Notes: generated from the sequence alone by a model not told the origin. 64,000 bases of DNA from an uncultured candidate division Zixibacteria bacterium (GCA_963801605.1 CAWDFP010000006.1:1696001-1760000); one strand, 5' to 3'; shown: positions 2,836-22,753, counted from the first letter of the stretch. Program-made: numbers and translations.

Positions 2836-2887
2836 TAAATATTGACATATTTTGACAATTGCATATCTTCTGCCTGAGGCTACGAAA

Positions 2888-5800
2888 ATGGCAGCGAGAA
2901 CCAAATTGGTAGCGGCCTCCCTATCTGCAATAGTACTCTTCTACGCTTTTGGGGCGCTTGCCGCAAATCCGGATGTTGTCTACCAGACGACCTTCAGTCC
3001 CAGAGTTCCGATTCTGGGAAGTGTTAAAATACGTCTGCAAAACGACAGCATCAGCCCTATCCTGATTTATGGGCAGGATTTGAACGGCAAACGCTGGCCA
3101 CTTGCATTTAGCACTTCTCGACGAGATATAATCATCAATGCCAATCCCGTTCCATTTGAAATGGCGGATCTATTTCTGGTTTATAGTACCAAGTTACACC
3201 AAAATAGGATCGATAGGGCTGCGGTATTTGTCAACAATATTGAGGCCCCAGGAGAGTGGGACAATCCGGAACCCTTGATTAACGGCGTTCTCACCGATGT
3301 TGTCGATTCACTTTCATTCGGGTTGGTCGGAGTCGCTGATACTCATTCCGTATCTTTTACCGTTAATAATAACCCCATTAGTGATTCCGGAGCCGTCTGG
3401 ATCATTTTCCCGTCAGGATTCGATATTTCAAACGTCGATGGCGTTCTTTATTCCGATAATGACACCACAAATGACGGGGAAGAATATTACCCGATAATTG
3501 AATCTGTCTCAGCCAACGAACATTCGCTTTTATTTCAATTTGCCCCATCGCGTCAGCAAGCATCTCCACTATCCCGAATTAACTTAAAATTCTGGCCCGT
3601 TATTAACGATACGGTAGCTCAAAGCTACACAGTCATAGTGATGACCACTAATCGAGCCGGAGAAATCGATAATGATCCGGCGGAGTCGCAATCATTTAAC
3701 CTTGTCCCTGAATCGCTTGATCGTATTAGCATCAATCCCGATACTGCCATGACACTTCGGGCGGGAGCCATAATCAATTTCACGGCATCCGGTACTGATA
3801 TATATAATAATCCGCTCCCAAACCTGCTTTTCGATTTTAATATCACAACGGATTCCTGCGGGAATATTGCCGCTGGGGCATTTCAAGCCTTGAAATTGGG
3901 AAGCACCTACGTCACTGTGTCGGCTTTGGGCCTTACGGATTCATCTGGTTTGATTACCGTTATACCCGGACCGTTGGATCATTTTAATTTTACGGGATAC
4001 CCGTCGCAGGACACCGCCGGCCGAACCTTCCGTCAAAATATTGTAGTTGAGGCCAGTGATGCCGAAAACAATCGCAAATATGACTACTACGGTTTGCTGT
4101 GGTTTAATACTGGAGACAATATCGACGATCTCCCGTTCAGAATCGCCAACCCCGATTCCTTTACAGTCCTCGATTCAGGTAGAGTAGAATATCCCGGAGC
4201 AGGTTTCTCACTTAAAAGAGCTGGTATCAGGTATATCCACGCCACCAATGGCAGCATCGAGGCGGTTTCGCCTCCGATAAGAGTCTTTCCCGCGGCCATA
4301 AACAGCTTCAGAATATCGACCGGAACTTCCCATACGGCAGGTGAGAGTTTCCCTGTTTTGGTTGATAGCGCTCTTGATGCTTATGGGAATTTGACATCGG
4401 GAGAAGTTGTGGTTTCCGATTCGACCGGCGGCGGAAGTTCACCCGGACAGCATTCCTCCGACCTTTAATAGCATTATCGTTTCCTCATCGGGAAATGGCA
4501 GCGCCCTGCAAACCCTTACCAATGCCGTTCCAACTTCCCTTAAGGGGGTGTCGGTTGGAGCTGGTATTCGAGCGGCTACTGCAGAATTTCAAGTGGTGCC
4601 CGGTGCTGTGGGGCGATTCGAACTGGCCGGATATCCTGACTTGGTTGTTGCCGGCGATCCCTTTCCTCCAACCAGAGTCAATATTTTTGATATTTTGGGA
4701 AATATTAAGACCAATTTTGATGGTTGGATTTATTTTGAATGCGACGATCCACAGGCAATACTCCCTTGTGTTATATCATCGCCCTGTCATCTACAGGGTG
4801 GAGTCTACAATGTCCCCGCAGGCGCCATATCGCTTCGAACCGCAGGCGTACAATCTATTGTGGCCACGGATGGAAGTCATTCCACTCCGTCAAATGCTAT
4901 TCATGTCGCTCCTTCAACTATCAGCCAATTTACTCTTACAGCCACAACATCTATAGCGGCAGGGACTCCCTTCGGCGCATCCGTAAGCGAAGCCCGAGAC
5001 ATTTGGGGAAATTTATCAAATGGTACGATAGCCATTTCTGCGGCTTCGGGCGGCGGACCGTCGCCAAATGGCACTTTACCGAATTTTGCTCCTGTTACCG
5101 TCGTATCCGGATTAGGAATTGCCTATCAAACCTTATACAATGTTAATATCACGGTTCTCAGGGGAACACTCGATAGCATATCCGCGCTAACCGATCCGAT
5201 TTCAGTCGGCCCGGGCGCCTTAGGCGGTTTTGATTTGACGGTTTCATCGCCTCAAGTGACCGAAATACCTTTTAGAAATGCGGCCGGGCTAACCGCGCGC
5301 GATCGTTATGGCAATTTGAAAACCAATTTTGATGCCTCTCTTGATTCCGTGGTAATATCATCCACGGGGGGAGGCCTGATGAGCAATAATATTTTGCGAT
5401 CTCCGGGCGATTTTATAGGCGGTATCGCTAATCTGGTAAATACGGGCACTACCTATCATGGTCCCGGCGGTTTAATGTCGTTCCGGGCAACATCCCGTTC
5501 AGGTAATTCCGGCTTATCCAACCAGGTTGATATGAACGCCATCCAGTGTTCAAATTTCATTATCGATCAACTTTCGGTAGCTCAGGGCGATACCGTAACC
5601 GGTACTATCTCGGTAGATAATGTAGCCGGTAGAAATGTCAGCATCACAAATCTATATGTGTTCGATGGCACTGGATGGTCACCGCAGCTCGAACCTGATT
5701 CTCTGTTACCCGCATTATTGGCCCGGACGAAACTAAAATATTTGGATTCCGACTTCCAATTCCGGATATCCTGCCGATAGGAACGCACTATCTGATTGCA

Positions 5801-8800
5801 GCCGCGCACGGCGCTTATGACCAGGACGTGGTTTCCGATACTCTGTCTGCTTTCCCGGATTCGGTTCAGGTAAGAGCCCGATCGATCATCTCATATGTTT
5901 CCGGTTCTCTGCATCCTGATACGCTCTCTTCCGGTTCCACTTATTCTTTGAATCTGCAACTTATAAATGTTGGAGCCGCGTCGCTGGCCCTTTATGATTC
6001 CTCATATATTTATTTTTCCGACGGTTCGAATAATTATAAAGCCGATATATCGGCCCCGGCTTATTTGACTCCAAATAATCCAGTTCTCATAACATTTGAT
6101 GCGGCGCTCGTCCCGCCAGGATTTACTCCCGGAACTTACACTCCTGTTTTCCAATATTTTGCCAATGAAAATGATCATTTCCGTTCGGGACAGGTTATTT
6201 TATCTGATCAGATACTAATTCAAAGCGCTCCTGAGATTTCATTTCACGGCCAGCTCAATATCCACAGCCTGGTCGCAGGACAAATTGTTTCGTTTGCTTT
6301 GGATGTTCTTAACAGCGGCCAGGCGGATTTCATCATTAACCATCAAGCCACCAGAATATCCCTCAGCGATTCCCAGCGTGAGTTTGTCGCTTATTCCGAC
6401 ACAACCAATGGAGTAAGAACGGATACGCTTCATAATGGGGTAACGACATTCCATTTCGCGCCAACGGAATTTCCATCTAATTTCACATACCGGTATGTAT
6501 CTTCCTTTAGTTACCTTTGACGGACGGCAAAATGGTTACGACACGAGCTTCACTTTCTATCTCGGGATCGATTCTGTATGGGTAATGTCTCCGGCTCTGA
6601 TACGCATCGATTCAACTAATACCATTTCTCGTAACGCACCTTTTGTAAACATTGCTCAGCCCTGCTCGATCAAAGTTACCATTGAAAATTTGGGATGGGA
6701 AAGGGCTGACTCCTTTTATATTCACCTGGCCACCGATGGCGCGTCTCAATTTCCAGATTCCATGCTTGTATCTTCGCTCGATGGCCGCCATAATCAAAAT
6801 ATCGTATTCCACTTAGCCGCTGGAGCATCATCGAATCCCAACGAGATCTTTAATAGCTCCGTTTCCGGAGGAAAAGGAAACTTAAGCGGGAATCCCCTCC
6901 AAATCGGGCCCCCGCTCGATAATAATGCTCTCCTGATTACTGAAATTCCAGCCGACTTAGCTCTTTCTTCAATTAATATCATTGGTCCGCCCGGTGCTCT
7001 CGATAGCACTATCTCCATCGAACAGCCGCTTACTGTTTCGGTTACGGTGCGAAATTTGGGTGAGGCCGATATTTCCCAACCAAGAATTCTGACTCTATAT
7101 CCGGGGGATGCCAATTGGGGAGTTGATTCTCTGCAGCGCGATTACATTCTTGGCCAGCCGGTGATCTGGCATCTGACTGCGCCCCCAATCGCTGTGGATT
7201 CCGCAGGGTTTTCGATCGGAATCTCCGGCAGCCCAATAGACTTGAACGACGGCTCGCCGGCCATCGGACCGAACGGTGTCTCGCTGATATGGTTTGCTAT
7301 AGAAAACAGAGCATCGATAGACCACTCTGCTTCAATTACGGAGCCTGCCGGAGCCGCTGACGGTATATTGTCAACGGATCAAACTATCATCGTTCGCGAC
7401 ATTTTGAGTCCGCACGGACTTTACCGAAGCAAGGCTGTTCAGTTAATCCTTCCCGACGGTTTCACAACTCAGGATTCGCTTGTTAAATATCCATCATCAG
7501 ATACAGCATTCTGGCATCTGCGGGCGCCTTCCGCGGCCACTGTCGATACCGCTAATATCGCATGTTGGATTTTTGACCTCAACAGGGGAGACTCATCAGA
7601 AGCGCCGTCTATTTCAATTCCACTTACAGTAGTCGATGCCGCTGAGCTTCAAATTTCGACAAGTATCATCGGCCCGCCGAGCGCTCAGGATGGTATCATC
7701 GAACCTGGCGGGCATTTTCAGTTTGAGGCCATGGTTAGGAATCTCGGTCAATCCGGAGTCAGCGCCGGCAGGATGACTATTCAAACCGGACGCTCCGATA
7801 TTACCACTGATATTTACAGCAAAAACTTCGTAGTTGGAGAACCAATCGATTGGACTATTAATTTGCCCAACGAGGAAATTCCGTTGCCAGTCCCGATTTG
7901 GGTTACTATTGATTCCATCCCAATCGAAGAAAATACAAATTTACCGGCTCACGTTTTAATTGATTCCGCCGGCGTTTCGATAGTAGTCAGAGAGCTTTTC
8001 CCCAGACTGGTGCTGGCGGGTATTACTTCGAATCATTCAGGTTCAGCTTTCAAAGGTCAGCAGTTGGGTTTTGCAACTATCGATCTACAAAACCGTGATT
8101 TCGGCGGCAATTTTGATATTGGAATAATGAGCCTTTCGGTAATAGTCAACAATAATCCGGATTTGCCTGCCGGACAGCTTCTTTCCAGTGCGACTTTAGG
8201 ATTCGGTTCTGAAAGCACTATCTCCGGGATATTCCAGGGCGATACGATCCTATTTAGTCAATTTGATACCTTGATGTTAGGTCCATCGCAGACAATATCC
8301 TTTAATCTTAATTTTGAAATTAATCCCGCCACTTCAGTTCGAGATTTTACCGTCCAATTTGCCTGGAATTTTGTGCAGGCCGGGGTGTTTGAAAACGGCA
8401 CATTTGTGGAAAATATAACGCCAGTTATGCCCCGGGGCGAATCGGTAAGTTGGCAGAGTGAACCATCAGCGATACTTGAGCCGAACTTTACGGCATCGCT
8501 TTCCAGCTATCCTAATCCTTTCAGTCCTCAGGATGGCGGTACGACAATTGGATATTTTCTACCAGCAGCTTCAAATCTTGAAATTAGGATATTTACCCTC
8601 TTAGGCGAACTGGTTTGGACTAAAACTATATCAGCAGCCGATCCGTTAGGCGCTGCCGGTCTCCATAGCGGTTCAAATGCGCTTCTATGGAATGCTACCA
8701 ACGATGTCGGCAACGAAATCCGCTCGGGTGTTTATATCTGTATGGTTAGAAATTTAACTTCAGGGGAGGAGGCAAAATTCAAAATCGCAGTTGTAAAATA

Positions 8801-8801
8801 G
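2888..8801 (+). CDS. Giant (~1,970 aa) secreted Ig-repeat surface protein with C-terminal FlgD/T9SS-sorting-like domain, split by three single-base indels (~4443, ~5722, ~6488)
   Basis: Four consecutive ORFs join by single-base shifts. Repairing the first junction gives TGGGSSPDSIPPTF, paralogous to downstream SGGGPSPNGTLPNF. Signal peptide follows ATG 2888. C-terminus reads 'SYPNPFSP..TTIGYFL..IRIFTLLGELV..WNATND.G..IRSGVYIC..KIAVVK'. Confidence 0.8.
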
Positions 8802-10627: not shown

Positions 10628-10686
10628 TCTTTACAGGGCTGTCCTGTGCCCTTAAATTTGTATAATAGAGGGGGCGGTATAAAGTT

Positions 10687-13611
10687 ATGGCTCGAAAATT
10701 AGTAAAAGAAGTATTCATGACGTTCCCCGCAGCGGAGGATCAGCTTGAGGATATCCGCAGCAGTGTGCGAAATGTGCTTTCCGAGGGTGACCTTTCTGAT
10801 AAGGCTGCCAACGGCGTACTTTTGGCTATCGAGGAAGCCTGTACTAACGTTATCCGACACGCTTACCTGTATGGACCGGGTGTTATCAGGATTAAGGTTA
10901 AGCTTTATCAAGATAGAGTAATTTTTTCCATATTTGATCGCGGGCGCAAATTCGATTTCGATCATTCCGAGGTGCCCGATCTGGATCGTTATATTCGCAC
11001 CGGCCGCAAGGGTGGCCTGGGCCTTTACCTCATCCGCAAGATGATGGATTCGGTGGAGTACTATTCCCGCGATGGCGAAAACGAGCTTCGCATGGAAAAA
11101 CGCTCCGACCGGGCAACTGCCCGCGCCATTCGGCCTCGAGGTATTTCAATTCGTGTTAAATTTGCATTATGGGCATCGTTAGTTGTTTTCGCCATAGTAG
11201 CAGGAGTATATCTCTATTTCCAAAATCAGGTGCGATTAAATGCCGAGCAACGCTTTTTCTCGGGCGCCGATAATAGTATCAATTCCTTTGTCTCCGATAT
11301 TGGCGATAAAACCGTCTTGAGAGACCCCGATCTCATGCGATCCGCCGATACCTGGCTGCGCTCCAACACCGATTTTTCCTATGTCATCGTAACTGATACC
11401 GCCAATATTATTATCGCTAATCCTCTTGCTTCCAGGGATTTTCTGACGGAATATTTCCCTAAACCGGAGGGAGAATATAATATCAAATTCGCCCAGGGCG
11501 ATTCCGCCGGGCAAAAGGAATTTAATTTCAAATTGCCGGTTAAACTTCGCGATCAAGTGGTGGGATATGCATATTTCGGCCTGATGGAACGGCCTTTGCT
11601 TTCGGATATTAGCCAGGCGCGCCGGAATCTTTTTATAATCAGCTTTCTCGGTTTGGTGATCGGTTTTGTAGCGGTATTTGCGCTTTCGAATTATTTCGTA
11701 AAGCCGATTCAAAAGCTCACCGAAGGAGTTAAGCGGATTGGTGAGGGCAATCTCGATCAAACCCTGCCTATCGAAGGCGCTGACGAGTTTTCCGATATTG
11801 CCAGAGCTTTCAACGAGATGACCACCAAGTTTAAAAAGGCCCAGGAAAATGTCGTTGAACAGGAACGCATGCAAAAAGAAATGCAGGTCGCCCAGGAGAT
11901 TCAGCACGCTCTCCTTCCGCGCCGTTTCCCCGATATTGAGGGGTACGATATCTCTACGGTCTACCGCGCCGCTAAGGATGTGGGCGGTGACTATTTCGAT
12001 TTTGTACAGATCGATGAGGATATCTTAGGTATCATCGTGGCCGATGTTTCCGGAAAGGGCGTACCCGGCTCACTGGTCATGACCATGATCCGCACCGCCC
12101 TGCGGCTCGAAGCCAGGGAAAATTATTCGCCAACCGATATCCTGGCGAAAGTCAACCGATTCGTCACCGATGACGTCAAACGCGGCATGTTTATTACTAT
12201 CTTCTTTATCACTCTCGATTCCGCCAAACGAACTATCTCATTCGCCTCGGCCGGCCATAATCCGATGATCCTCTACCGTAAGGATTCCGATTCCTGTTAC
12301 TTCCTCAATACTCGCGGTATGCCGCTGGGAATAGCGCTTCCCGAAGGAGTTAGTTTCGAGGATTCGCTGGAGTTCGATCGCGTCAAACTTAAAAAAGACG
12401 ATATGCTCGTTCTCTACACCGACGGTATCACTGAGGCTATGAACAAAGCCGGAGAGCTTTTCGGAAACGACAGGCTGATCCAATTCATCAAATCTCATTC
12501 TGAATTAGCCCCCGAGGAATTTACAAAAAAGCTCGATGCCGAATTGCATAAATTCACCGGCGGCGCCCCTCAGGGTGATGATATCACCCTGGTTGTGATT
12601 AAAGAGAAGATGATGCTTGATGAGTTAGTTTTCGAAAAACGAAAACGGCTTATCGAGATGGTTGAAAACGAGGGTGTGCCCCTGGAGCAGGCTTGCGAAC
12701 AGATGGGAATTTCGCCGTCTACTTATTATAAATATCGCCGTCGCTGGCTGAAGCTTGGGGATGTCGGTCTTCTCAATAAAAAGTTGCGCGCCGATTCGAT
12801 TATCAGGCAAATTCCTTATGAGGTTCGAAAAGAGATCTTAAAACTGGTGCGGGAAAATCCCGATCTCGGTACCAAGCGTATCCTGGATGAACTCAATAGC
12901 AGAGGGATTATCGATATTGATCAGCGCGGGATATATGAAGAGATGATTCGCCTCCGGCTTAACACCAGAAAAATGCGTTTGGAATATGTCGAGAGAGTCG
13001 GCGGCCTGACGCCCGAGATGAGCGCCGAACTTGAAAAAGAGCTTCTAAAGGACAACGGTAAAAAAGAAGAGGTCGACCGCGGCGAATATCTGGAGATCAT
13101 CAAGAAAAGCCTTGAATCAAAAAAGGGGCAGTTAAGTCCTGCGGCCAGGGAATTGGTTGAGAAGCTTCAGAAAATGGAGCCGGTTTTAGGGGATACCATC
13201 CTTTACGGCGAAATTGCAGCCGAACTAACCAAGCTGCGGGACGGCGAAGATATTGCCAGGCTATTTGAAAGTATTATTCTCAAAATGGCCAATATGACCA
13301 AAGAAAAGGCAGAAAACGAAGCAGCGGCTGCGCAGATCGCGGAGCGTCAGGAACAAGCTCCGCATGCCCCCACTGTCAAAGCTAATGGTATAATTGCCGC
13401 GTTGAATTCCGAGGCAATCCCAACGGAAACTGAACCTGAACAAGGATCGTCTGAATCTACAGTAGATTTATCCGAATTAAGCAAGGAAATTTCGCCGATA
13501 AATATAGTAGACTCAGCCTTAAAGATTGAGAACGAAAACGAAGGGGAGGCGCCAGGGTTCGACTGGGAGGAATATTCGCGCAAGCTTTCTGAGAAACACA
13601 AATCGAAATGA
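10687..13611 (+). CDS. Membrane-anchored RsbW-like kinase / extracytoplasmic sensor / HAMP / SpoIIE (PP2C) phosphatase / tandem HTH fusion
   Basis: HATPase_c_2 motifs EEACTNVIRHAY and GGLGLYLI, two TM helices and a HAMP domain. PP2C motifs VGGDYFD, ADVSGKG, YTDGITEA and DDIT are intact. C-terminal 'ACEQMGISPSTYYKYRRRW' HTH is followed by a second HTH and an acidic tail. Confidence 0.9.
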   Translation: MARKLVKEVFMTFPAAEDQLEDIRSSVRNVLSEGDLSDKAANGVLLAIEEACTNVIRHAYLYGPGVIRIKVKLYQDRVIFSIFDRGRKFDFDHSEVPDLDRYIRTGRKGGLGLYLIRKMMDSVEYYSRDGENELRMEKRSDRATARAIRPRGISIRVKFALWASLVVFAIVAGVYLYFQNQVRLNAEQRFFSGADNSINSFVSDIGDKTVLRDPDLMRSADTWLRSNTDFSYVIVTDTANIIIANPLASRDFLTEYFPKPEGEYNIKFAQGDSAGQKEFNFKLPVKLRDQVVGYAYFGLMERPLLSDISQARRNLFIISFLGLVIGFVAVFALSNYFVKPIQKLTEGVKRIGEGNLDQTLPIEGADEFSDIARAFNEMTTKFKKAQENVVEQERMQKEMQVAQEIQHALLPRRFPDIEGYDISTVYRAAKDVGGDYFDFVQIDEDILGIIVADVSGKGVPGSLVMTMIRTALRLEARENYSPTDILAKVNRFVTDDVKRGMFITIFFITLDSAKRTISFASAGHNPMILYRKDSDSCYFLNTRGMPLGIALPEGVSFEDSLEFDRVKLKKDDMLVLYTDGITEAMNKAGELFGNDRLIQFIKSHSELAPEEFTKKLDAELHKFTGGAPQGDDITLVVIKEKMMLDELVFEKRKRLIEMVENEGVPLEQACEQMGISPSTYYKYRRRWLKLGDVGLLNKKLRADSIIRQIPYEVRKEILKLVRENPDLGTKRILDELNSRGIIDIDQRGIYEEMIRLRLNTRKMRLEYVERVGGLTPEMSAELEKELLKDNGKKEEVDRGEYLEIIKKSLESKKGQLSPAARELVEKLQKMEPVLGDTILYGEIAAELTKLRDGEDIARLFESIILKMANMTKEKAENEAAAAQIAERQEQAPHAPTVKANGIIAALNSEAIPTETEPEQGSSESTVDLSELSKEISPINIVDSALKIENENEGEAPGFDWEEYSRKLSEKHKSK

Positions 13612-14351
13612 TCAAATTAGCCATCTTGACAGCCAAAGGCGGTACCGGGAAAACCACAACGGCCATCAATCTGGGCCACGGTTTGGCGCTATCCGGAAGG
13701 CGTGTGCTGATTATTGATTGTGATCCTCAAGGCTCGGCCTCAGCCGCTTTTGGAATCAATGGCGAACACGGATTGGCAGATCTTCTCCTGGACGGAAAAG
13801 TCGATATATTCCAGGTTCGGCCCCATCTTTATTTGGTACCATCAGGACGAAAACGTTTGGCGGAACTCGAAATCAAACTGGCGGCCCGTCCGGATCGCCT
13901 GGAACGTCTAAAAATTGCGCTTGCCAGGCTTTCCGGCTGCGATTGGGTTATTTTGGATTGCTCTCCATCAATAAATGTAGTAAATTTGAATGCCTTAGGT
14001 TTTGCCGATAAACTTTTAATACCCTCCTCACTTGATTACTTTTCTCTGGAGGGTGTAAAGTCGACCATGGAGTTGACCGTCGAATTGGCGGCAAATGGAG
14101 CAGGGAAGCTTGAAATATTGGGGGTTTTGCCGACATTTTACGATAAGAGGACAAGCGTTTCGCGTATGGCGCTTGAGACCCTTAGAAACACTTATGGCAA
14201 AATGGTATTTGATACCGAAATCAGGCTTAATACCGAGATTAAAAAGTCGCAGTGGTATAAAAAAACGGTTTTTGAGTTCGCTCCCTATTCACATGGGGCT
14301 TACGATTACTATAAATTGGCAAAGGAAGTCCTGGAAAGGATACAGGTTTGA
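13608..14351 (+). CDS. ParA/Soj-family ATPase (orphan, no adjacent parB)
   Basis: Deviant Walker A KGGTGKTTT, DCDPQG and DCSPS. Start overlaps the upstream stop (ATGA). Confidence 0.92.
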   Translation: MIKLAILTAKGGTGKTTTAINLGHGLALSGRRVLIIDCDPQGSASAAFGINGEHGLADLLLDGKVDIFQVRPHLYLVPSGRKRLAELEIKLAARPDRLERLKIALARLSGCDWVILDCSPSINVVNLNALGFADKLLIPSSLDYFSLEGVKSTMELTVELAANGAGKLEILGVLPTFYDKRTSVSRMALETLRNTYGKMVFDTEIRLNTEIKKSQWYKKTVFEFAPYSHGAYDYYKLAKEVLERIQV

Positions 14352-14357
14352 GGGGAT

Positions 14358-15071
14358 ATGAGCGATATTAAAATCTCTCTCGACAGTTCGGGGCCAAAAG
14401 GCGAAATCTCCATCGTCCGCGTCGACGGCGTCATCGATACCATGACCGCTACCGATTTGGAAAAGGTAATGAATTCCCTTCTAGAACGACGCCGTTATAA
14501 CGTAATTATCGATCTTGGCGGAGTCGACTACATCTCATCCGCCGGATGGGGTATTTTTATTTCCAATATCAGGGAGATTCGTCAGCATTCCGGCGATATC
14601 AAACTGGCCAGAATGATTCCCAATGTATATGAAATTTTCGAGTTATTGGAATTTGATAGTATTCTCAAAGCTTTCGATAGCGTCGAAAAGGCCAAGACCG
14701 ATTTCGATGGCATTAAAAAAGCGGTATCTGATGACGAAAGCAAAGAAGCCGTGCCTCAGGCCACAACCAAGATGGAGACTAAGATTGTCAAACCGGATAC
14801 CTCCGGCGTTCCTCAAACTACGAAGCCGATAGATCCCCAGCCCACAGCCAAAACCGAATTTCCTGTTAAGCTTGAGCCGCATGATGTGGTTATCGAGATG
14901 ATTTCCAAGGATCCCTTTCTAACTATTTCCGAAATCAAAAGCGAAATTGCCAAAAAACATCCCGAATTGAGGGTTGGCTGGTGGAAAATCTGGGGGATAT
15001 TGAAGCGCGAGAAACTTCTTGGCAGGAAAAATCGGTTTCGTAAAGCCCGGCTTAAATCCGGAGGCAATTGA
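14358..15071 (+). CDS. STAS anti-sigma-factor antagonist with C-terminal HTH-like domain
   Basis: STAS motifs 'G.ID..TA..LE', 'DLGGVDYISSAGWG' (phospho-Ser) and 'VYEIFELLEF'. A P/T/K linker leads to a basic helical domain. Confidence 0.9.
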   Translation: MSDIKISLDSSGPKGEISIVRVDGVIDTMTATDLEKVMNSLLERRRYNVIIDLGGVDYISSAGWGIFISNIREIRQHSGDIKLARMIPNVYEIFELLEFDSILKAFDSVEKAKTDFDGIKKAVSDDESKEAVPQATTKMETKIVKPDTSGVPQTTKPIDPQPTAKTEFPVKLEPHDVVIEMISKDPFLTISEIKSEIAKKHPELRVGWWKIWGILKREKLLGRKNRFRKARLKSGGN

Positions 15072-15075
15072 AAAC

Positions 15076-16917
15076 ATGTCCAATTCCAGGCTCTGGCTTA
15101 TAATTTTTTCCCTATTCTTCTTTTGCCTTTTGGCATTCGGGGTGGCGATTGTCTTAAAAACAGCCTGGATCACCGCTTTAGTAGTCGTACTCGTTTTAGC
15201 GATCTCGGCCGTTTTAATAATTTCCTTCAATAAAACTTCGCGGGATTTAGCAATTCTATCGAAAATTACCCAGCCTGTAAAATCTACAGAGAACATTTTA
15301 GCCTTTAGGCTTTTAGCCGAACTTGACCTCTCCGCTATCGAGAAAAAATCGCCGGCCTTGAAAGCCGCTGAATTAATAAGGGAGAAATTCCAGCTTGAAA
15401 GTTTCGCCATATTCTTCCGTGAGGAAGATAAATATATCCCCAAGATTTACTCCGGAATAAACAGGATCGGCCTCGCTGCGCCGCCAATCCAAAAGCTAAG
15501 CCCCGCAATGAAAAGCAATATCAATATTGGGGCTTTGTCCAGTGATGAGAGTGATATCCTGACAGCATTCAAACGCGATGGAGTTAATATCGCTTCCTCG
15601 ATGATAGCCTTCGCTTATTCCTGGAGCCGGATGCACTCGGTTTATCTGATTGCCGACGATTCTCTCGGACGATTTTCCGAATCGCTGCGAGACTCTGAAT
15701 TCAACCGCATTTTCTGGCCCGGTCTGGATAATGAATTAAGGCAAAATCAAAAATTTCTGGAAAGAGGGCAGGAGGTTCGTGAACTTGGCCGCCAGTTGGA
15801 TCAAGCCAAAAAGGACATTGGCGATTTAAACAGGGAGCTTAAAAATAAGCTTTTGGATCTCAGGGCTTTCGTAAATATATCCAGCGATCTCTATTCGCTT
15901 TTCAGTGAAGAAGAGCTGCTTTCCAGGCTCAAACAGATAGTATGTGAAAAGCTTGGCGCCGCTTCAGCCGAAATCCTGGTACCTTCCGGTGATAGCCGTT
16001 TCATTCCCCACGCTGCCGGTGATGCCGGTCAGGCTGCTATGGACCTGTCATTGGATTCCGAATCGGAATTGGCAGAACTTATTTCAAAATCGCCTCGCCC
16101 CGTGTTACTGCCGTTGGCCGGGTCAGGTTTTAAGCGCAACGAACCTTTCCTTCGAGCAGCCCTGACTTTGAATTTTCAGATAGCCTCGGCGATCAGAACC
16201 TCCGGGCATACGGCTTGTGTACTGATGGTTTCTCAGAAAAAAGATAAGACTCAGTTTACCAATCTCGATCTCGATGTTTTATATATAATTACCAATATTG
16301 CATCACTGGCGCTCGACAATATCCATCAATATTCAACAATAGAAAAATTATCTTATACCGATAGCATGACGGGGATTTATAACTACCGATACTTTTACAA
16401 ACGTCTTAACGAAGAAATTTTGCGCGCCAAACGTTACGACCGTGAACTGGCGCTGGTCATTCTCGACATCGATAATTTTAAATCCTTTAATGATAATTTC
16501 GGTCACCAGGCCGGAGATCTGGTACTAAAGCAATTGTCTGATTTGATTACCAAAACTATTCGTTCAATCGATGTGGTCAGCCGATATGGAGGCGAAGAAT
16601 TCTGTATTATCATGCCGGATACCGGTATCGGCCATTGCCAAATATTTATAGAAAGGCTTCGTTCTCAAATTGCGGATTTTAAGTTTGAATCGAATCTTTT
16701 CCAAAAAGGCGGCAGTATATCGGTGTCGGTGGGAGGGGCGGTCTACCCGCAGCACGCTCCCATGCCCGATCGGCTCATTTACTGCTCCGATATGGCGCTT
16801 CTCAAGGCTAAGGCGTTGGGACGAAATCGGGCTGTGATGTATGAAGCGGATATTTCCTTTGAGTCAAAATCCACGGAAGGGGGATTTAATGGAAGCCGTC
16901 AAGAATCGATGCTATGA
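15076..16917 (+). CDS. Membrane-anchored GAF-GGDEF diguanylate cyclase
   Basis: Two N-terminal TM helices, a coiled coil and a GAF-like domain. TDSMTG, DIDNFK.FND.FGH.AGD, RSID I-site and RYGGEEF active site are present. Confidence 0.92.
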   Translation: MSNSRLWLIIFSLFFFCLLAFGVAIVLKTAWITALVVVLVLAISAVLIISFNKTSRDLAILSKITQPVKSTENILAFRLLAELDLSAIEKKSPALKAAELIREKFQLESFAIFFREEDKYIPKIYSGINRIGLAAPPIQKLSPAMKSNINIGALSSDESDILTAFKRDGVNIASSMIAFAYSWSRMHSVYLIADDSLGRFSESLRDSEFNRIFWPGLDNELRQNQKFLERGQEVRELGRQLDQAKKDIGDLNRELKNKLLDLRAFVNISSDLYSLFSEEELLSRLKQIVCEKLGAASAEILVPSGDSRFIPHAAGDAGQAAMDLSLDSESELAELISKSPRPVLLPLAGSGFKRNEPFLRAALTLNFQIASAIRTSGHTACVLMVSQKKDKTQFTNLDLDVLYIITNIASLALDNIHQYSTIEKLSYTDSMTGIYNYRYFYKRLNEEILRAKRYDRELALVILDIDNFKSFNDNFGHQAGDLVLKQLSDLITKTIRSIDVVSRYGGEEFCIIMPDTGIGHCQIFIERLRSQIADFKFESNLFQKGGSISVSVGGAVYPQHAPMPDRLIYCSDMALLKAKALGRNRAVMYEADISFESKSTEGGFNGSRQESML

Positions 16918-17971
16918 AGCGATCTTGATTAAAATTGCATTAGCGCTATTTGGGCTGATTTTTATAGGGCAGTTTTGTGCTTTAGCGAGCGCCTCTGCTC
17001 AGGATACCGCCGGCAAACAAGCCCAGGCTAATGATCAAACCGTAAATCAGCCTCAAACCGGTCAGGAATCTTATGTTATCGGTAACCTCGATATGCTGTC
17101 GGTAGCATTCTGGCAGCAACCGGATCTCAACCGCGATGTTCGAGTTGATGAGAACGGGATGATAAGTTTGCCGGTTATCGGCGATATCAAAGCTGCCGGT
17201 TTGACGCCTAACGAGCTTTCCAAAAAAATCGTGCAGCAAATGAGTATCTACAACACTCCAGTCTCACAGGCAACGGTTAATGTCACCGAGTTTAACTCCC
17301 GAAGCGTGGTGGTCGCCGGTCGGGTTCTCACTCCGGGCAGCCGCCGATATGAAAAGATACCCGACGTTTGGCAGGTCATTCTTGACGCCGGCGGACCTAT
17401 GTCCGATGCCGACCTTTCACGCGTGACTATTGTCAGGAAAGAGGGCGAGAAATCTAACGTTATCAATGTAGATATATATAAGATCATTCAGTCGGGCGAC
17501 CTTGCTAAAGCTCCTCAGCTTCAGCCGGGAGACCTGGTCAACGTTCCCATATCCAGTTATGGCACGAATATAAGCATGTCCCTACCCACTCAACCCAGAT
17601 TTGAAGGCAGAAATATATTTTTCGTCTTTGGACAGGTTGTCGAACAGGGTCCGCGGAACCTTGAAGAGGGAATGGATGTTTTGGACGGGATTGCGCTTGC
17701 CAGAGGGTATACTCCTGATGCCGATCTCAAGCACGTTAAAGTTATAATGAAGGACGCTAAATATTCTAATGTCATAAAGCTGAATTTGGAAAAGTATATG
17801 TCAAGCGGTCAGCCTCCCAGAATAATGCTTCATCCGGAGGATACCATAATTGTGCCCACCCGAAGCAGTTTCTTCACAACCGCCATGTCGCATCTGAATA
17901 CTATTCTGCCTGCACTGGGCACTACGGCGACCCTGGTACTTGTGATAAGAGAAATTCAAAGGAATCCCTGA
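16889..17971 (+). CDS. Polysaccharide export protein (Wza/OPX-like, Poly_export plus SLBB repeats)
   Basis: 'YVIG..D.L.V.FWQQPDL...VRVDENG.ISLP.IG.IKAAGLTP.EL' motif, SLBB repeats and a C-terminal amphipathic helix. Confidence 0.9.
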   Translation: MEAVKNRCYEAILIKIALALFGLIFIGQFCALASASAQDTAGKQAQANDQTVNQPQTGQESYVIGNLDMLSVAFWQQPDLNRDVRVDENGMISLPVIGDIKAAGLTPNELSKKIVQQMSIYNTPVSQATVNVTEFNSRSVVVAGRVLTPGSRRYEKIPDVWQVILDAGGPMSDADLSRVTIVRKEGEKSNVINVDIYKIIQSGDLAKAPQLQPGDLVNVPISSYGTNISMSLPTQPRFEGRNIFFVFGQVVEQGPRNLEEGMDVLDGIALARGYTPDADLKHVKVIMKDAKYSNVIKLNLEKYMSSGQPPRIMLHPEDTIIVPTRSSFFTTAMSHLNTILPALGTTATLVLVIREIQRNP

Positions 17972-18131
17972 TGAACCTGGCTTATGGTTTTGAACGGTTG
18001 GGCATTGAATTTTCCAGCGAACAAAAACCATAATTACCGTCTAAAATGAAATAGCGGGCTTGCGAAAGTTAGAATATTAATATATACATTTTGATGTATC
18101 AGGATAATTATTAAATCTCGAAGGTAGTGCT

Positions 18132-19718
18132 TTGGAAAACGAAAAATCGCAAATAGATTTAAGAAGTTACTGGGCTATTCTGGGAAGGCGCAAAGCGCTT
18201 CTGATCTTGCCGCTTATGATTGTGCCCCTGGTCGCATTCATCATAACTTATTTTATGAAACCGACCTATGTTTCAACCGTGTCCATTCTGATTGGCGATA
18301 CTATGGTTTTACCTACTCCAGTTCAACAGGATGTACAGGGTCGAAACGGCGGATACGATTATCGAAGCGCCCAGGAATTGCAGAGTTCTTATCTAAATCA
18401 GATCACATCGACGAAATACCTGAAACGCCTTATTGCCGTTCTTAATATCCCGATCTCGGAAGAAGTTAAGCGCATGGTCGCTTTAACCAAGGCCAATTAC
18501 CCCGATGTTACTGAAAGCGATCTGGCTGAAAATATCCTTTCCGACCAGCTTCGCAAAAGGGTCATGGTCTCGATGAGATCCAACAACCTTATCGATCTCT
18601 CGGTTGTATCCATAGATCCGATCAGCGCACGGAAAATGGCGGCGGCCCTGGCAGATATCTTCATTGAAGAGAACCTGGCATCCGAACTGGCCGGGATTCG
18701 CTCCAGTATTTCCTTCTCAGAAGATCAACTGGCATTTTATAAAGATAAACTTAAAGAAGCCGAGGATAAGCTTCGCGACTTCAGGCAGGGCATCTTATCA
18801 TCATCGTTCGGCCAGGATACCAGCTCGATCAATCTCAGGGAGATTGCCTCTGCGGTTCAGACGCTGGATATAGAAATATCCAATGAACAGGAACAGCAGG
18901 CCGGCCTGCGTTCAGCGCTGGATCAGGAAAGCGTCGATGTTTCCGCATTTACACTGCCTCCCGGAGTCAGCACTCTCAGGGATAGACTGCTTGGTAATGT
19001 CAACCAGCTTGCTAATCTTCTTACAAGTTATTCCTGGCGAGATGCCAAGGTTGTGAGTCTTAATGAGGAGTCCCGCGGCCTTATCACTGATATTACCACT
19101 CAGATTCGTACCTGGGCGGAGCAAAAATATGCCGCATCACCTGCTAATGTACGAGAGACTATCATCGAATATCTCGCCGGTAATATTGTCACCGATTTTA
19201 ATCATGCCAAGCGCGCCAGCCTCGATTCATATATAGGGAAAACCAAAACGAAGCTTGGCGAGGACCCGGGAACCGAAATTACCTTGCAAAGACTTCAAAG
19301 CGAGGTCGACAGTTATAAGAGATTCTATGACCTCTTCGTTTCTCATTCCCAGAATGCTGCTATCAACCAATCGGCCATAAAAGTTGAGGCCGAGGCTAAA
19401 TATACCATCATCAGGCCGGCTTCTCTGCCCCTGGCGCCTGATTCGCCAAATAGATTTCGGATTTTTGGCATGGGTATCGCCTTAGGCCTGGTATTGGGAT
19501 TTGGCGCTATTCTGACTGTCGAGCTTCTTGATGATTCCTTTAAGAAAATTGAAGATGTGACCCACTACTTGAAACTGCCCGTCATCGGAACCATCCCAAG
19601 AATGGAGCTTCCCTTTGGCAACTCCTCGAAAAAAAGATTTCCGATAATAATTGGCTTGGGCATCAGCATGGTGCTCATCATGATTATAGTATTCTTACAT
19701 TTTAAGAAGAACGGATAA
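18132..19718 (+). CDS. Polysaccharide co-polymerase (Wzz/Wzc N-terminal, GumC-like)
   Basis: 'IDLRSYW.IL.RRK', TM, long coiled coil, 'PASLP.APDSPN', TM and 'E.LDDSF...EDV...L.LPVIGTIP'. Confidence 0.88.
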   Translation: MENEKSQIDLRSYWAILGRRKALLILPLMIVPLVAFIITYFMKPTYVSTVSILIGDTMVLPTPVQQDVQGRNGGYDYRSAQELQSSYLNQITSTKYLKRLIAVLNIPISEEVKRMVALTKANYPDVTESDLAENILSDQLRKRVMVSMRSNNLIDLSVVSIDPISARKMAAALADIFIEENLASELAGIRSSISFSEDQLAFYKDKLKEAEDKLRDFRQGILSSSFGQDTSSINLREIASAVQTLDIEISNEQEQQAGLRSALDQESVDVSAFTLPPGVSTLRDRLLGNVNQLANLLTSYSWRDAKVVSLNEESRGLITDITTQIRTWAEQKYAASPANVRETIIEYLAGNIVTDFNHAKRASLDSYIGKTKTKLGEDPGTEITLQRLQSEVDSYKRFYDLFVSHSQNAAINQSAIKVEAEAKYTIIRPASLPLAPDSPNRFRIFGMGIALGLVLGFGAILTVELLDDSFKKIEDVTHYLKLPVIGTIPRMELPFGNSSKKRFPIIIGLGISMVLIMIIVFLHFKKNG

Positions 19719-19723
19719 TAATT

Positions 19724-20842
19724 ATGCCTCCGATTGGATTTACGGATAAGTTCAGACGTTTGGATCGCGAATACCTGATGCAAACATCGGTAAGTGAAGC
19801 TCGCAAGGCGATCGTTTGTTCGCTTTTTCACTCGGGTTTGCTGATTAACTCCCGGACTTTTCCATTGCCGCCCAATCTCGAAGGCGACGCTTTATTGGAA
19901 AAAGTGGCCAAACATCATGAGCATTGCCTTTCGGATATCAACTCCCTGTTGGGTCTTGTGGAGCGCATGAAAGAACTCGATAAGCCGGAGATCATTGAAA
20001 AACTGGGACGAACTCTCTGTTCGCATGAACTATACGATGAGGGATGCAGCCTGTTGGATTACGCTGTTCAAAAGTACCCCGAATCTCCCGGACTACGGTT
20101 TGCGTTGGGACGGATTTGTCTGGCTAAGGGAAAATTCGAAGAGGCCTGTGAGCAGCTATCGCGGGCGGTGGAGTTGGCGCCAGTATATCCCGATTACCGT
20201 AATCTTCTCGGCGTTGCTTTTCTTAAGACCAATAAACCGGTAGCAGCCATAGACGAATTCCGTAAAGCTGTGGAAATCAATATTTATTATGATGAAGCAT
20301 ATTTCAACCTGGGCCTTGGATATATATTGAATGGGATTGTCAAAGAAGATTTCAATCTGGCAAAAAATCTTCTGCACAACTGTCAGGAAACATTTCAAAA
20401 AGCTGCTCTATTTAATCCCGCCTTTGGCACTGAGGAATATGAAAAAGGCATGGCGCTTTTAAGTGAGGGTCAACTGGAACCAGCTTATGAAATTCTTGGC
20501 AACGTTGGCAGGGACGCTGTCAATCATCGCGCCGACGAAAAGCTGCTTGAAATGTATATGCGCTATATTTACGGGCAACCGGGGTTAACCGAAGCCGGGA
20601 TAAAGCAATATCTCGAGGAAGTAAGCGAGCTTCTCAAATCCAATCCGGGGCATGCCGATCTGCACAACGAACTTGGTATGGCTTATATGATAATGAGCAA
20701 ATTCCTGAACAATAAAGCAATGGAGCACTTCCAGGAGGCATTGAGGATTAATCCCAATTTCCTCAAGGCCGCCAGGAATCTCAAGCTTTCTCAGAATGAT
20801 CTGAAAGGCTTTGAGGTCCTGCTGGACGCGATTATCAGATGA
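19724..20842 (+). CDS. Cytoplasmic TPR protein
   Basis: TPR motifs (YPDYRNLLG, HADLHNELG, ALRINPNF). No signal peptide. Confidence 0.8.
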   Translation: MPPIGFTDKFRRLDREYLMQTSVSEARKAIVCSLFHSGLLINSRTFPLPPNLEGDALLEKVAKHHEHCLSDINSLLGLVERMKELDKPEIIEKLGRTLCSHELYDEGCSLLDYAVQKYPESPGLRFALGRICLAKGKFEEACEQLSRAVELAPVYPDYRNLLGVAFLKTNKPVAAIDEFRKAVEINIYYDEAYFNLGLGYILNGIVKEDFNLAKNLLHNCQETFQKAALFNPAFGTEEYEKGMALLSEGQLEPAYEILGNVGRDAVNHRADEKLLEMYMRYIYGQPGLTEAGIKQYLEEVSELLKSNPGHADLHNELGMAYMIMSKFLNNKAMEHFQEALRINPNFLKAARNLKLSQNDLKGFEVLLDAIIR

Positions 20843-21552
20843 ACGATAGAAAGCAGATGTCATTATTATCGGTTTATCATAAAGAATCGGCGATCGGCAC
20901 CGAGTTTCGTCGCTTGTATTCCAATATCAGAAGTAAAAGTCAGGGTCGGAAAATTCAAAACCTGATGATTACATCCGCTACGGTGGGGGAGGGCAAATCG
21001 CTGACCAGCAGTTTGCTTGCCATAACCATAGCCGAGCTTACCAAGCTCAAAGTGGCGTTAGTTGATTTTGATTTGAGACGCCCCAAGATTTCAAGTTATT
21101 TCGGTCTGGAGAACGACGGTGGAGTAGCTGACGTTTTAACCGGCAAAGCGTCGTTAAAAGCGGTCTCACAAAAGACTACTGCCCCGAATTTGACTGTTAT
21201 TCCCGCCGGGCATCTGGATAAGCTTCCCACCGACGTACTTGAACATGAGCATGTCGCCAATTTCTTTCAAGAATTGAAATTCTATTTCGATCAGGTTATA
21301 GTTGATACCCCTCCTATTATTCCCGTTTCAGATCCCATGCTCCTGGCCGAGCATGTCGATAGCGTCATTCTCGTGATAAGGGGAGGCTCCACCCAAAGAG
21401 ATGTCGTCAGCAGGGCGTCCAATCTTCTGATCAACGCCAATATTGATATCCTTGGAGTGGTTCTTAATGATTTCGAGGAAGTCCTACCGTATTATTACAA
21501 GGAAAAATATTACGGGTATCATTATTATCACAAAGATTTAAAGATTGAATGA
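20839..21552 (+). CDS. BY-kinase (CpsD/CapB-type tyrosine autokinase)
   Basis: Walker A GEGKS, A' DFDLRRP, B DTPP and C-terminal Tyr cluster YYYKEKYYGYHYY. Confidence 0.93.
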   Translation: MNDRKQMSLLSVYHKESAIGTEFRRLYSNIRSKSQGRKIQNLMITSATVGEGKSLTSSLLAITIAELTKLKVALVDFDLRRPKISSYFGLENDGGVADVLTGKASLKAVSQKTTAPNLTVIPAGHLDKLPTDVLEHEHVANFFQELKFYFDQVIVDTPPIIPVSDPMLLAEHVDSVILVIRGGSTQRDVVSRASNLLINANIDILGVVLNDFEEVLPYYYKEKYYGYHYYHKDLKIE

Positions 21553-21779
21553 CACATCTCAATAAATGCTGCAATGCATTATTTCTGCATTTATTTGCAT
21601 AATCGACTGATTTTGTTTATTCCAATTTAGGGATAATTCCTATTAATTTTCCGCGAGCACGAAACCCGGCCTTATTTCTGGTTTTGTAAGTTATTATATT
21701 TTATGAACTTACAATACCTATGATGCGCTTGTCTCTTAAATAATTTTTTAACGCAAACTTAATCCTCGTGGCTTGTTCG

Positions 21780-21795
21780 TGGCAGCAAATTTGCA
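21780..21795 (+). promoter_or_regulatory. Putative sigma54 (-24/-12) promoter
   Basis: TGGCAGCAAATTTGCA matches TGGCACGNNNNTTGCW spacing and lies 58 nt upstream of the sugar transferase. An AT-rich IHF-like tract is at ~21685-21712. Confidence 0.6.
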
Positions 21796-21853
21796 TTAAG
21801 AGGGAGCAAAAGGGGAAATCTTAAATTAGATAATTTTTATCGGAGATAGATTA

Positions 21854-22753
21854 ATGAGATACCAATATCCTGTGCCAAATCCTCTCGGACATTACTGGGA
21901 TGAAGAATCCGTCAGAGTATGGGGCATTAAACTCGGGATTTCTAAAAAAGCCGGATATTACCTGAGCTACTTTCTGGGCGAAATAGTTTTAGCCAATTTC
22001 TTTATGTTATATGCGCTTATCCTAAATCAGGCCTTGCTTCTTGGTTCAAAGAGGGCAGTAGCCAGAGTTTCTCACCGCATTGATATTGGCTCGATTGCTA
22101 AAAGATCGATTGATATCGTTGGAGCCATAGTTGGTTTGATTTTAACCTTGCCACTTTGGTGCTTAATCGCCGTCGCGATAAAGCTTGAATCCAAGGGGCC
22201 AATCTTCTACAAACAAGAACGGGTTGGCCAGAATAGACGCCGTGGTGATCGGCGTGCTGTAATATTGACAGGCCAGGAAAGACGTATTCAGGCGGATCGT
22301 CGTAAAACGCCCGGCCATGGAATGACTTTCATGATTGTGAAGTTCCGCAGTATGCGGCAAGATGCTGAATCCTATAGCGGCCCTGTTTGGGCGCAGAAGA
22401 AGGATCCTCGTATAACCCGCGTTGGACATTTCCTGAGAATCACCAGGTTGGATGAACTTCCGCAGTTTATCAACGTTCTTATCGGAAATATGAGCCTGGT
22501 TGGCCCTCGCCCTGAAAGACCGTTTTTCGTCAACGATCTTCAAACTAAAATTAAAGATTACACTGCTCGTTTTGATGTTAAGCCCGGCATTACTGGTCTG
22601 GCTCAAGTCGAACACAAGTATGACGAAAGTATTGAAGATGTTTCCAAGAAGATTTCTTATGATCTTCGATATATCCACAACTGGACCGTTTTTCAGGACG
22701 TTAAGATCATCATGAGAACCGTGATCGTGGTTTTAACAGCTCGCGGTATGTAG
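21854..22753 (+). CDS. Priming (polyprenyl-phosphate) sugar transferase, Bac_transf family
   Basis: [53 protein letters not shown] and [10 protein letters not shown]. Confidence 0.93.

Follow-up and report, generated by a model that had tools for sequence, protein, structure and literature searches.

Our analysis of a 64,000-nucleotide stretch of DNA (hereafter the window), whose homologues suggest a host from the Zixibacteria, identified a partner switch in which a membrane sensor fusion protein and its STAS partner protein carry related helix-turn-helix (HTH) domains of the IS481 transposase type. This partner switch is real, resembles the CapK/CapS system in its logic and is not an insertion sequence (IS), and its named homologues come from Zixibacteria and Calditrichota. 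It is likely that the STAS partner regulates the adjoining slime-export genes as a nucleic-acid-binding protein under phosphate control. The explanation that we prefer, namely a conserved partner switch whose STAS HTH is a probable nucleic-acid binder controlled through Ser61 phosphorylation and probably regulates polysaccharide-export genes, is offered tentatively, at a little less than an even chance. An earlier note on this DNA had proposed that a domesticated transposase DNA-binding module was grafted onto both members of the switch, and every peptide it quoted was located at its place in the two open reading frames (ORFs).

The fusion protein comprises an RsbW-type kinase, two transmembrane (TM) segments around a sensor, a HAMP domain, a SpoIIE/PP2C phosphatase, two HTH units (HTH1 and HTH2), a helical region and a tail, and its kinase domain contains motifs that we take to be the N, G1 and G2 boxes. 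The two-HTH module (12628–13002) scored above the Pfam cut-offs for HTH_23 and HTH_28 and reached that of HTH_32 when scanned alone. Fusion residues 651–763, also scanned alone, corresponded to positions 1–112 of the 284 in the NCBIfam IS481 model (NF033577, E 1.5e-17), the next NCBIfam matches being IS3 (1.5e-9) and IS630 (1.6e-7), in agreement with the proposal that such a two-HTH layout is typical of the transposase N-terminus. HHalign comparison with transposases gave 98.9% for HTH1 and 96–97% for HTH2. The AlphaFold2 model of the module showed two HTH units joined by a flexible linker (predicted local distance difference test, pLDDT, 87.9), and Foldseek ranked highest for it the PAX6/PAX5 paired domains, TnsB and Tc3, each of which is a bipartite DNA binder (best E 0.03) and among which the PAX paired domain and Tc3 are structural analogues. 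No Foldseek match at E≤0.001 was returned for the fusion-module or STAS-HTH models, the ESM Atlas search gave no usable match, and sequence searches of the PDB returned only STAS proteins plus weak TnsB and Sleeping Beauty rows.

The absence of a DDE domain and of IS ends was likewise borne out, as the fusion had no rve-type Pfam match and scored 64 with the IS481 model against a cut-off of 224, tblastn with the IS481-type ORFs of 30 Zixibacterial loci matched the window only at 12538–13056 and never by the catalytic part, and no inverted repeats bracketing the module were found. Contrary to the earlier description, the module is not the end of the fusion, since 200 residues (775–974), a helical stretch and a tail of low conservation, come after it. 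A search with the fusion module among proteins of 30–534 amino acids (aa) gave nine matches of 53–82% identity, apparently fusion fragments, and no transposase. Overall, the module resembles IS481 transposases (and also IS3 and IS630) in its two tandem three-helix HTHs, basic linker and N-terminal match positions, with one IS481 subgroup also sharing its fourth-helix motif, but differs from them in the missing DDE core and IS ends, its single copy, the loss of the recognition-helix Arg and an altered HTH2 third helix.

In the STAS partner, a small soluble protein of 237 aa, Ser61 (14538–14540) aligned with SpoIIAA Ser58, and from knowledge of these families it is highly probable that the fusion acts on this residue in both directions, adding and removing phosphate. 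The C-terminal STAS HTH has a strongly positive net charge (+7 to +10) and was modelled by AlphaFold2 as four helices with no strands (pLDDT 93.0). Matches to HTH_28/29/32, which the earlier note had suggested as a check on both proteins, were obtained for the fusion module (HTH_28, and HTH_32 when the module was scanned by itself, in addition to HTH_23) but not for the window STAS HTH, which reached no Pfam or NCBIfam cut-off when scanned alone (best E 0.02–0.04).

The homology of fusion HTH2 and the STAS HTH is real, but it becomes visible only on profile comparison. The by-eye alignment of the STAS C-terminus with the second half of the module stands by profiles, with HHalign values of 93.7% (E 1.9e-7) for the Zixibacterial HTH2 and STAS HTH profiles, but not pairwise, as BLASTP of the window fusion module against the window STAS HTH gave no alignment at E≤100. 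With the same Zixibacterial profiles, the STAS HTH compared with transposases at 78–89%, slightly below its value with HTH2, and HTH2 was above that value in its own comparison with transposases. The relationship was stronger in Calditrichota, with whose fusion HTH2 the 13 cognate STAS HTHs aligned at 99.1% (E 7.5e-19, 35% identity) and HHalign scores of the cognate STAS HTH were 93 to fusion HTH2, 63 to the GT2 family and 38 to transposases. An xYG turn was present in 13/13 cognate STAS HTHs and 29/38 fusion HTH2 units versus 0/26 transposases, and a Glu-Leu pair in helix 3 in 7/13 and 36/38, respectively, versus 1/26. A STAS HTH profile search of 1.84 billion representatives returned 171 matches, and among the matches listed (150 of 171) distant STAS-HTH proteins scored alike on the fusion and STAS profiles. 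Eighty loci from named genomes included 13 cognate operons, mostly from Calditrichota, with both the fusion module and the STAS HTH, while most of the remainder were STAS-HTH paralogues, largely of KSB1, heading a wza-wzc operon.

Phylogenetic analysis placed the fusion and STAS domains on one side of a 97/84 branch and IS481 transposases and Patescibacteria glycosyltransferases on the other, in a tree of 76 rows and 65 columns. Its outgroups all came from IS481, IS3 and IS630 being unrepresented, and three long-branch fusion rows of family f4 and 8 of the 18 Zixibacterial STAS rows were left out. It is very probable from these comparisons that an IS481 N-terminus was captured once, before the split of Zixibacteria and Calditrichota, and that HTH2 was then duplicated onto the STAS gene. 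The proposed graft onto both members is thus retained as a shared IS481-type origin and is less likely to reflect two separate grafts, capture followed by HTH2 duplication being favoured. In Patescibacteria, seven membrane GT2 glycosyltransferases (P0228, P0231, P0237, P0248, P0255, P0271 and P0272) start with two tandem HTH1-HTH2 modules that keep the transposase Arg, a third use of the module and again on a polysaccharide protein. One further protein (P0258) has a DnaJ domain fused to an HTH2-type module and may be a gene-calling or assembly chimera.

Among 285 genomes of the phylum, the fusion module was found in 60, one copy each (63 matches minus three ORFs of 392–395 aa, two of which are IS481 transposases). 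It was present in families f1 (12/13), f2 (10/10), f5 (20/21), f6 (2/2), f7 (6/6), f14 (6/6) and f4 (3/5), and absent from f9 (0/108), f18 (0/33) and f10 (0/15). The STAS HTH was found in 228 of the 285 genomes, of which approximately 170 had it without the fusion module; families f3, f8, f12 and f16 are without a STAS HTH. The two findings that the earlier note had named as damaging, orthologues without the module and lack of an HTH fold, were both not observed for the STAS HTH, but the fusion module is missing from the several families above. The ratio of non-synonymous to synonymous substitution (dN/dS), which had been suggested as a check, had medians in family f1 of 0.11 for HTH1, 0.08 for HTH2, 0.07 for the STAS HTH and 0.02 for PP2C versus 1.0 for the STAS linker, from 3–24 usable pairs per domain with synonymous sites near saturation. 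The spacing between the PP2C end and HTH1 was 33–35 residues in 120/120 proteins from two phyla, and the module is in frame, with GC content and third-position GC (GC3) equal to the rest of the fusion gene. The module is an old, selected feature, conserved across two phyla in single copy under purifying selection, and in this respect the view of it as a domesticated transposase DNA-binding module of IS481 type was supported. In family f4, one fusion (G025, L076:5839-8133) has lost HTH1 and kept HTH2, and the other fusions have a degenerate HTH1 and no adjoining ParA gene.

Retention of the STAS HTH without the fusion module means that it is not merely a dock for that module, and docking of the two modules on each other as their sole function was ruled out by the same genomes. 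Complex prediction for the fusion module and STAS HTH gave no answer (score 0.00) and counts neither way.

Family f9, which lacks the fusion module, provided a second view of the STAS HTH. We read 71 of its 77 matching loci, 69 of which had a downstream HTH, and the STAS linker contained an A-run in 69/69 (A9 in 12, A10 in 56 and A11 in one), with the HTH lying in frame −1 relative to STAS in 50 loci, 0 in 16 and +1 in three. Loci of other families were in frame in 39/39 cases, with A-runs of at most A7. A fixed A-run followed by the HTH in three frames is as predicted by RNA-polymerase slippage, and the f9 run is likely to act in this way, giving forms with and without the HTH. A reading as a split gene was ruled out by the conserved A-run in three frames, and one as an assembly error by its position and length being fixed in 68 genomes; in one genome, Illumina contigs (two runs of one study, possibly the source of the assembly) spanned the run without a gap. 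Thermus dnaX is another case of programmed slippage. Programmed transcriptional slippage on an A-run has been described for tssM1 of Citrobacter rodentium and, as cited in the accessible part of the same paper, mxiE (PMC4256274). Family f9 resembles tssM1-type slippage in its mid-gene run of 9–11 A and in having relatives with a long or short form as the default, but differs in that the case concerns f9 orthologues only and is known from DNA alone. In five f9 genomes (G030:C6, G047:C7, G054:C5, G076:C6 and G134:C2) a flagellin-family gene shares a contig with the STAS gene at a distance of approximately 25–26 kb, a linkage that recalls the hsb cluster beside flagellar genes.

In the explanation that we prefer, the IS481-type two-HTH module would sit on a membrane sensor predicted to have kinase and phosphatase domains, the STAS partner of this sensor would carry a likely duplicated copy of HTH2, and the STAS HTH would be the working effector because it persists where the fusion module has disappeared and because likely slippage makes it optional in f9. 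By analogy with CapS, phosphorylation might change STAS dimerisation or partner choice and so DNA occupancy, a step for which we consider the chances to be even. The module of the fusion itself is more likely to be an input or tether than an output, because it is fixed tightly to the phosphatase and, in examined Zixibacteria, lies beside ParA. DNA binding by the STAS HTH is plausible in view of its fold, its basicity, the CapS precedent and its linkage to export genes, as it adjoins wza-wzc genes even in KSB1/Calditrichota paralogues lying apart from the fusion.

CapS is a dimer of STAS and winged HTH that represses its adjacent operon until phosphorylated by the HTH-STAS-GHKL kinase CapK, whose activator is single-stranded DNA, according to the available part of the report (Chambers et al., EMBO J 2026, PMC13373217). 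As far as that part describes, the system in the window is alike in its GHKL anti-sigma-type kinase (PF13581) and STAS substrate with a conserved Ser, each carrying an HTH-type domain, in the order of STAS and a C-terminal DNA-binding-type domain, and in genes lying beside possible targets. Unlike CapK, the fusion has the order GHKL-TM-HAMP-PP2C-HTH-HTH with an N-terminal kinase in a membrane sensor, and unlike the ArsR/MarR-like winged HTH of CapS, the STAS HTH is modelled as four-helical, strandless and IS481-related, with GGDEF and wza-wzc neighbours instead of immune operons. CapK/CapS is the closest precedent, by its logic, but the system in the window is not a member, departing from it in architecture, fold and neighbourhood.

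Several results weigh against a DNA-binding STAS HTH derived from fusion HTH2. Approximately unbiased (AU) tests on the 65 columns rejected neither STAS with transposases (p 0.167) nor STAS with GT2 modules (p 0.229), leaving an independent origin of the two modules unrejected, and the Zixibacterial STAS profile scored 68 to GT2 modules versus 27–35 to the fusion, which is partly a collection effect. A wide structural search with the STAS HTH gave generic HTH rows only (best Z 6.0), with CapS not listed, and the linker in the window has no slippery run (A6, in frame), which limits the slippage reading to f9. No fusion (0/120) had the recognition-helix Arg of HTH1, in contrast to 24/25 transposases and, among GT2 modules, 24/26. 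The third helix of fusion HTH2 is net acidic (−0.8), and that of the STAS HTH has, at three positions where transposases have small polar residues, approximately 2.7 aromatic ones; such acidic or aromatic helices would suit a protein interface. Finally, CapK/CapS has a palindromic operator, but no conserved palindrome or operator was found in the promoter regions of approximately 55 loci by eye and by k-mer counts, without formal motif discovery.

These promoter regions showed only sigma-70-, sigma-28- and sigma-54-like elements, labelled by what we take to be their consensus. A CTTTAC hexamer at the fusion promoter recurs at the same place in families f1 and f2, and the sigma-70-like scan by itself did no better than chance (36 against an expected 31.8). 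In KSB1-type paralogues a sigma-54-like promoter lay upstream in 40/60 versus 0.27 in shuffles, and a tandem TGT-N11-ACA-type element was present in 21/60 KSB1/Calditrichota paralogues (L195–L272, upstream of position ~8001). This element was rejected as a STAS operator, since it lies upstream of the sigma-54-like promoter and would more simply be an enhancer-binding-protein site. The KSB1/Calditrichota paralogues sit between a glycogen-synthase-like gene, identified by inspection, and the wza-wzc operon.

Alternatively, and possibly though this is the less likely case, the HTHs may have been repurposed as protein-binding surfaces in a system like HsbR-HsbA-HsbD, where STAS phosphorylation would decide between GGDEF cyclase and FliA pathway, with the HTH serving to dock a third protein (the cyclase, Wzc, an anti-sigma factor or polymerase). 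HsbR, a soluble protein with a receiver domain, takes its input from HptB and presumably unites kinase and phosphatase in one protein, as in the fusion; to our knowledge, neither HsbA nor HsbR has an HTH. The fusion differs from HsbR in having a membrane sensor and no receiver domain among its Pfam matches, and both partners in the window carry HTHs. In Pseudomonas aeruginosa, phospho-HsbA binds the diguanylate cyclase HsbD, and the HptB-HsbR-HsbA-HsbD system shares with ours, in the part of the report available, a STAS anti-anti-sigma protein, a linked diguanylate cyclase and a biofilm/flagellar context (Valentini et al. 2016, PMC5085249). A GGDEF gene lies directly 3' of the STAS gene in most Zixibacterial loci, and FliA/WhiG sigma was found in 272/285 and flagellin in 226/285 genomes. 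Sigma-28-like promoters in relatives preceded STAS in 6/28 regions and wza in 7/22 versus approximately 0.2 expected, with a pattern that was chosen after seeing the data. The diverged recognition helices and the lack of an operator by eye also favour protein docking. However, the STAS HTH stays strongly basic and is kept both without a following cyclase (Calditrichota cognate operons and KSB1 paralogues) and without the fusion module, so that no single candidate partner tracks it.

The genome of the window possesses FliA/WhiG (G000:C5:20509-21357), flagellin had no match in it or in two congeners, and the operon contains no cognate SigB/SigF-type sigma. Sigma region-2 matches in the 87%-complete genome numbered 14, of which the one scanned was FliA/WhiG and the rest were RpoD-like or extracytoplasmic function (ECF) types by inspection. 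With the cyclase and FliA at hand, recognition residues diverged and no operator found, the proposal of DNA binding as output "rather than" sigma sequestration was not upheld; direct DNA binding, if real, is likely to add to the usual STAS outputs, and would run beside the cyclase and FliA pathway and not instead of them.

It is improbable, but consistent with part of the evidence, that DNA binding is non-specific and serves placement or sensing, so that the fusion module and ParA would place the membrane complex over the nucleoid or signal contact with DNA to the phosphatase, the substrate would be parked at the nucleoid by the STAS HTH, and f9 slippage would give free and bound pools. Of the Zixibacterial loci examined, all 21 with an intact HTH1-HTH2 have ParA adjoining the fusion and none of the others does, the PP2C-HTH1 spacing is fixed, basic surfaces are kept while the specificity Arg is lost, and the operator search by eye was negative. 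That nucleic acid can be a kinase input is shown by CapK in the accessible part of its report (PMC13373217). Against this, Calditrichota fusions keep the module without adjoining ParA, and the ParA correlation comes from a few related families and does not amount to an independent test. A wider and doubtful scheme, which would make this a counterpart in bacteria to the domestication seen in PAX proteins, joins elements of these readings: the IS481 bipartite domain would have been captured by the kinase/phosphatase and half of it copied to the substrate, both meeting on DNA, with a transmembrane signal setting STAS occupancy at biofilm genes. ParA would position the complex, and in one large family the fraction that binds DNA would be tuned by programmed slippage. 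That the module is a functionless, strain-specific IS scar can be practically dismissed, because, although IS481 is its closest curated family and several families lack it, it is in frame and single copy, with a fixed junction in 120 proteins of two phyla, dN/dS of ~0.1 and the GC and GC3 of the rest of the gene.

Returning to the partner switch in its locus, the operon order in the window is a surface-protein gene, a PorV-like/TPR gene, the fusion, a ParA-type gene, the STAS gene, a membrane GGDEF cyclase and wza/wzc-type genes, with coordinates given in Table 1. The wzc-like, TPR, tyrosine-kinase and sugar transferase labels are what we presume from sequence and general family knowledge. The surface-protein gene is split over four ORFs (2852–4468, 4407–5780, 5828–6520 and 6495–8801) but is a single ORF of ~1,900 aa in close relatives (L276–L278), and either assembly indels or a decaying gene may account for the split at 2852–8801. 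A second RpoD-like sigma ORF (G000:C6:1588409-1588933) stops early after region 2-3, another hint of assembly indels. A sigma-54-like promoter lies 5' of the sugar-transferase gene (21780–21795), which taken alone is within chance, and similar elements occur there in L281–L283.

Table 1. Coordinates in the window of the partner-switch genes, their domains and associated features.
Feature	Position	Strand	Basis
Sigma-70-like promoter TTTACA-17-TAAATT upstream of fusion	10630..10658	+	Hexamer inspection, scan
974-aa membrane sensor fusion ORF	10687..13611	+	ORF and domain searches
RsbW/SpoIIAB-type GHKL serine kinase domain	10708..11103	+	PF13581 E 7e-27
TM1, extracytoplasmic Cache-like sensor, TM2	11149..11697	+	Hydropathy peaks at residues 152-170 and 312-330; sCache_3_2 E 1.8e-4, below cut-off
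HAMP domain	11683..11841	+	PF00672 E 6e-14
SpoIIE/PP2C phosphatase, acidic metal-ligand motifs intact	12022..12609	+	PF07228 E 2e-51
HTH1 of IS481-type module, fixed spacing from PP2C, without the near-invariant transposase Arg	12628..12786	+	Profile searches, model
HTH2 and basic fourth helix; third helix net acidic; likely parent or sister of STAS HTH	12811..13002	+	Profiles, tree
Helical region and poorly conserved tail with short conserved motif at end, without transposase catalytic domain	13009..13608	+	Domain searches
ParA/Soj-type ATPase gene, between fusion and STAS genes	13608..14351	+	PF13614 E 8e-34
237-aa STAS protein ORF	14358..15071	+	ORF
STAS (anti-anti-sigma type) domain	14358..14705	+	TIGR00377 above cut-off; alignment to 1TID/1TH8
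Linker, evolving neutrally; longest A-run A6, in frame	14706..14876	+	dN/dS ~1.0
Single HTH and basic fourth helix; aromatic third helix; net basic; homologous to fusion HTH2	14877..15050	+	Profiles, model
Membrane GGDEF diguanylate cyclase (GGEEF), directly 3' of STAS gene; candidate conventional output	15076..16917	+	PF00990 E 1e-42
wza-like export, wzc-like chain-length, TPR, tyrosine-kinase and sugar transferase genes; candidate regulated genes	16889..22753	+	PF02563 for wza; synteny

Eukaryotes offer well-known cases of domesticated transposase DNA-binding domains, such as PAX and CENP-B, but in bacteria such domains have seldom been traced. In the part of the literature within reach, most subscription papers lying outside it, no description was found of a Zixibacterial anti-sigma or cyclic di-GMP switch, of slippage in an anti-sigma antagonist or, going by titles and the openings of abstracts, of IS481-HTH domestication of this kind. 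In the present case the module has become a fixture of both a signalling enzyme and that enzyme's substrate in Zixibacteria, Calditrichota and KSB1, and glycosyltransferases of Patescibacteria bear a related module. Should the STAS HTH bind DNA, partner switches would have arrived at direct control of transcription on at least two occasions and by different routes, in CapS and in the system described here, the latter with a membrane input that is reversible and a target in motility/biofilm.

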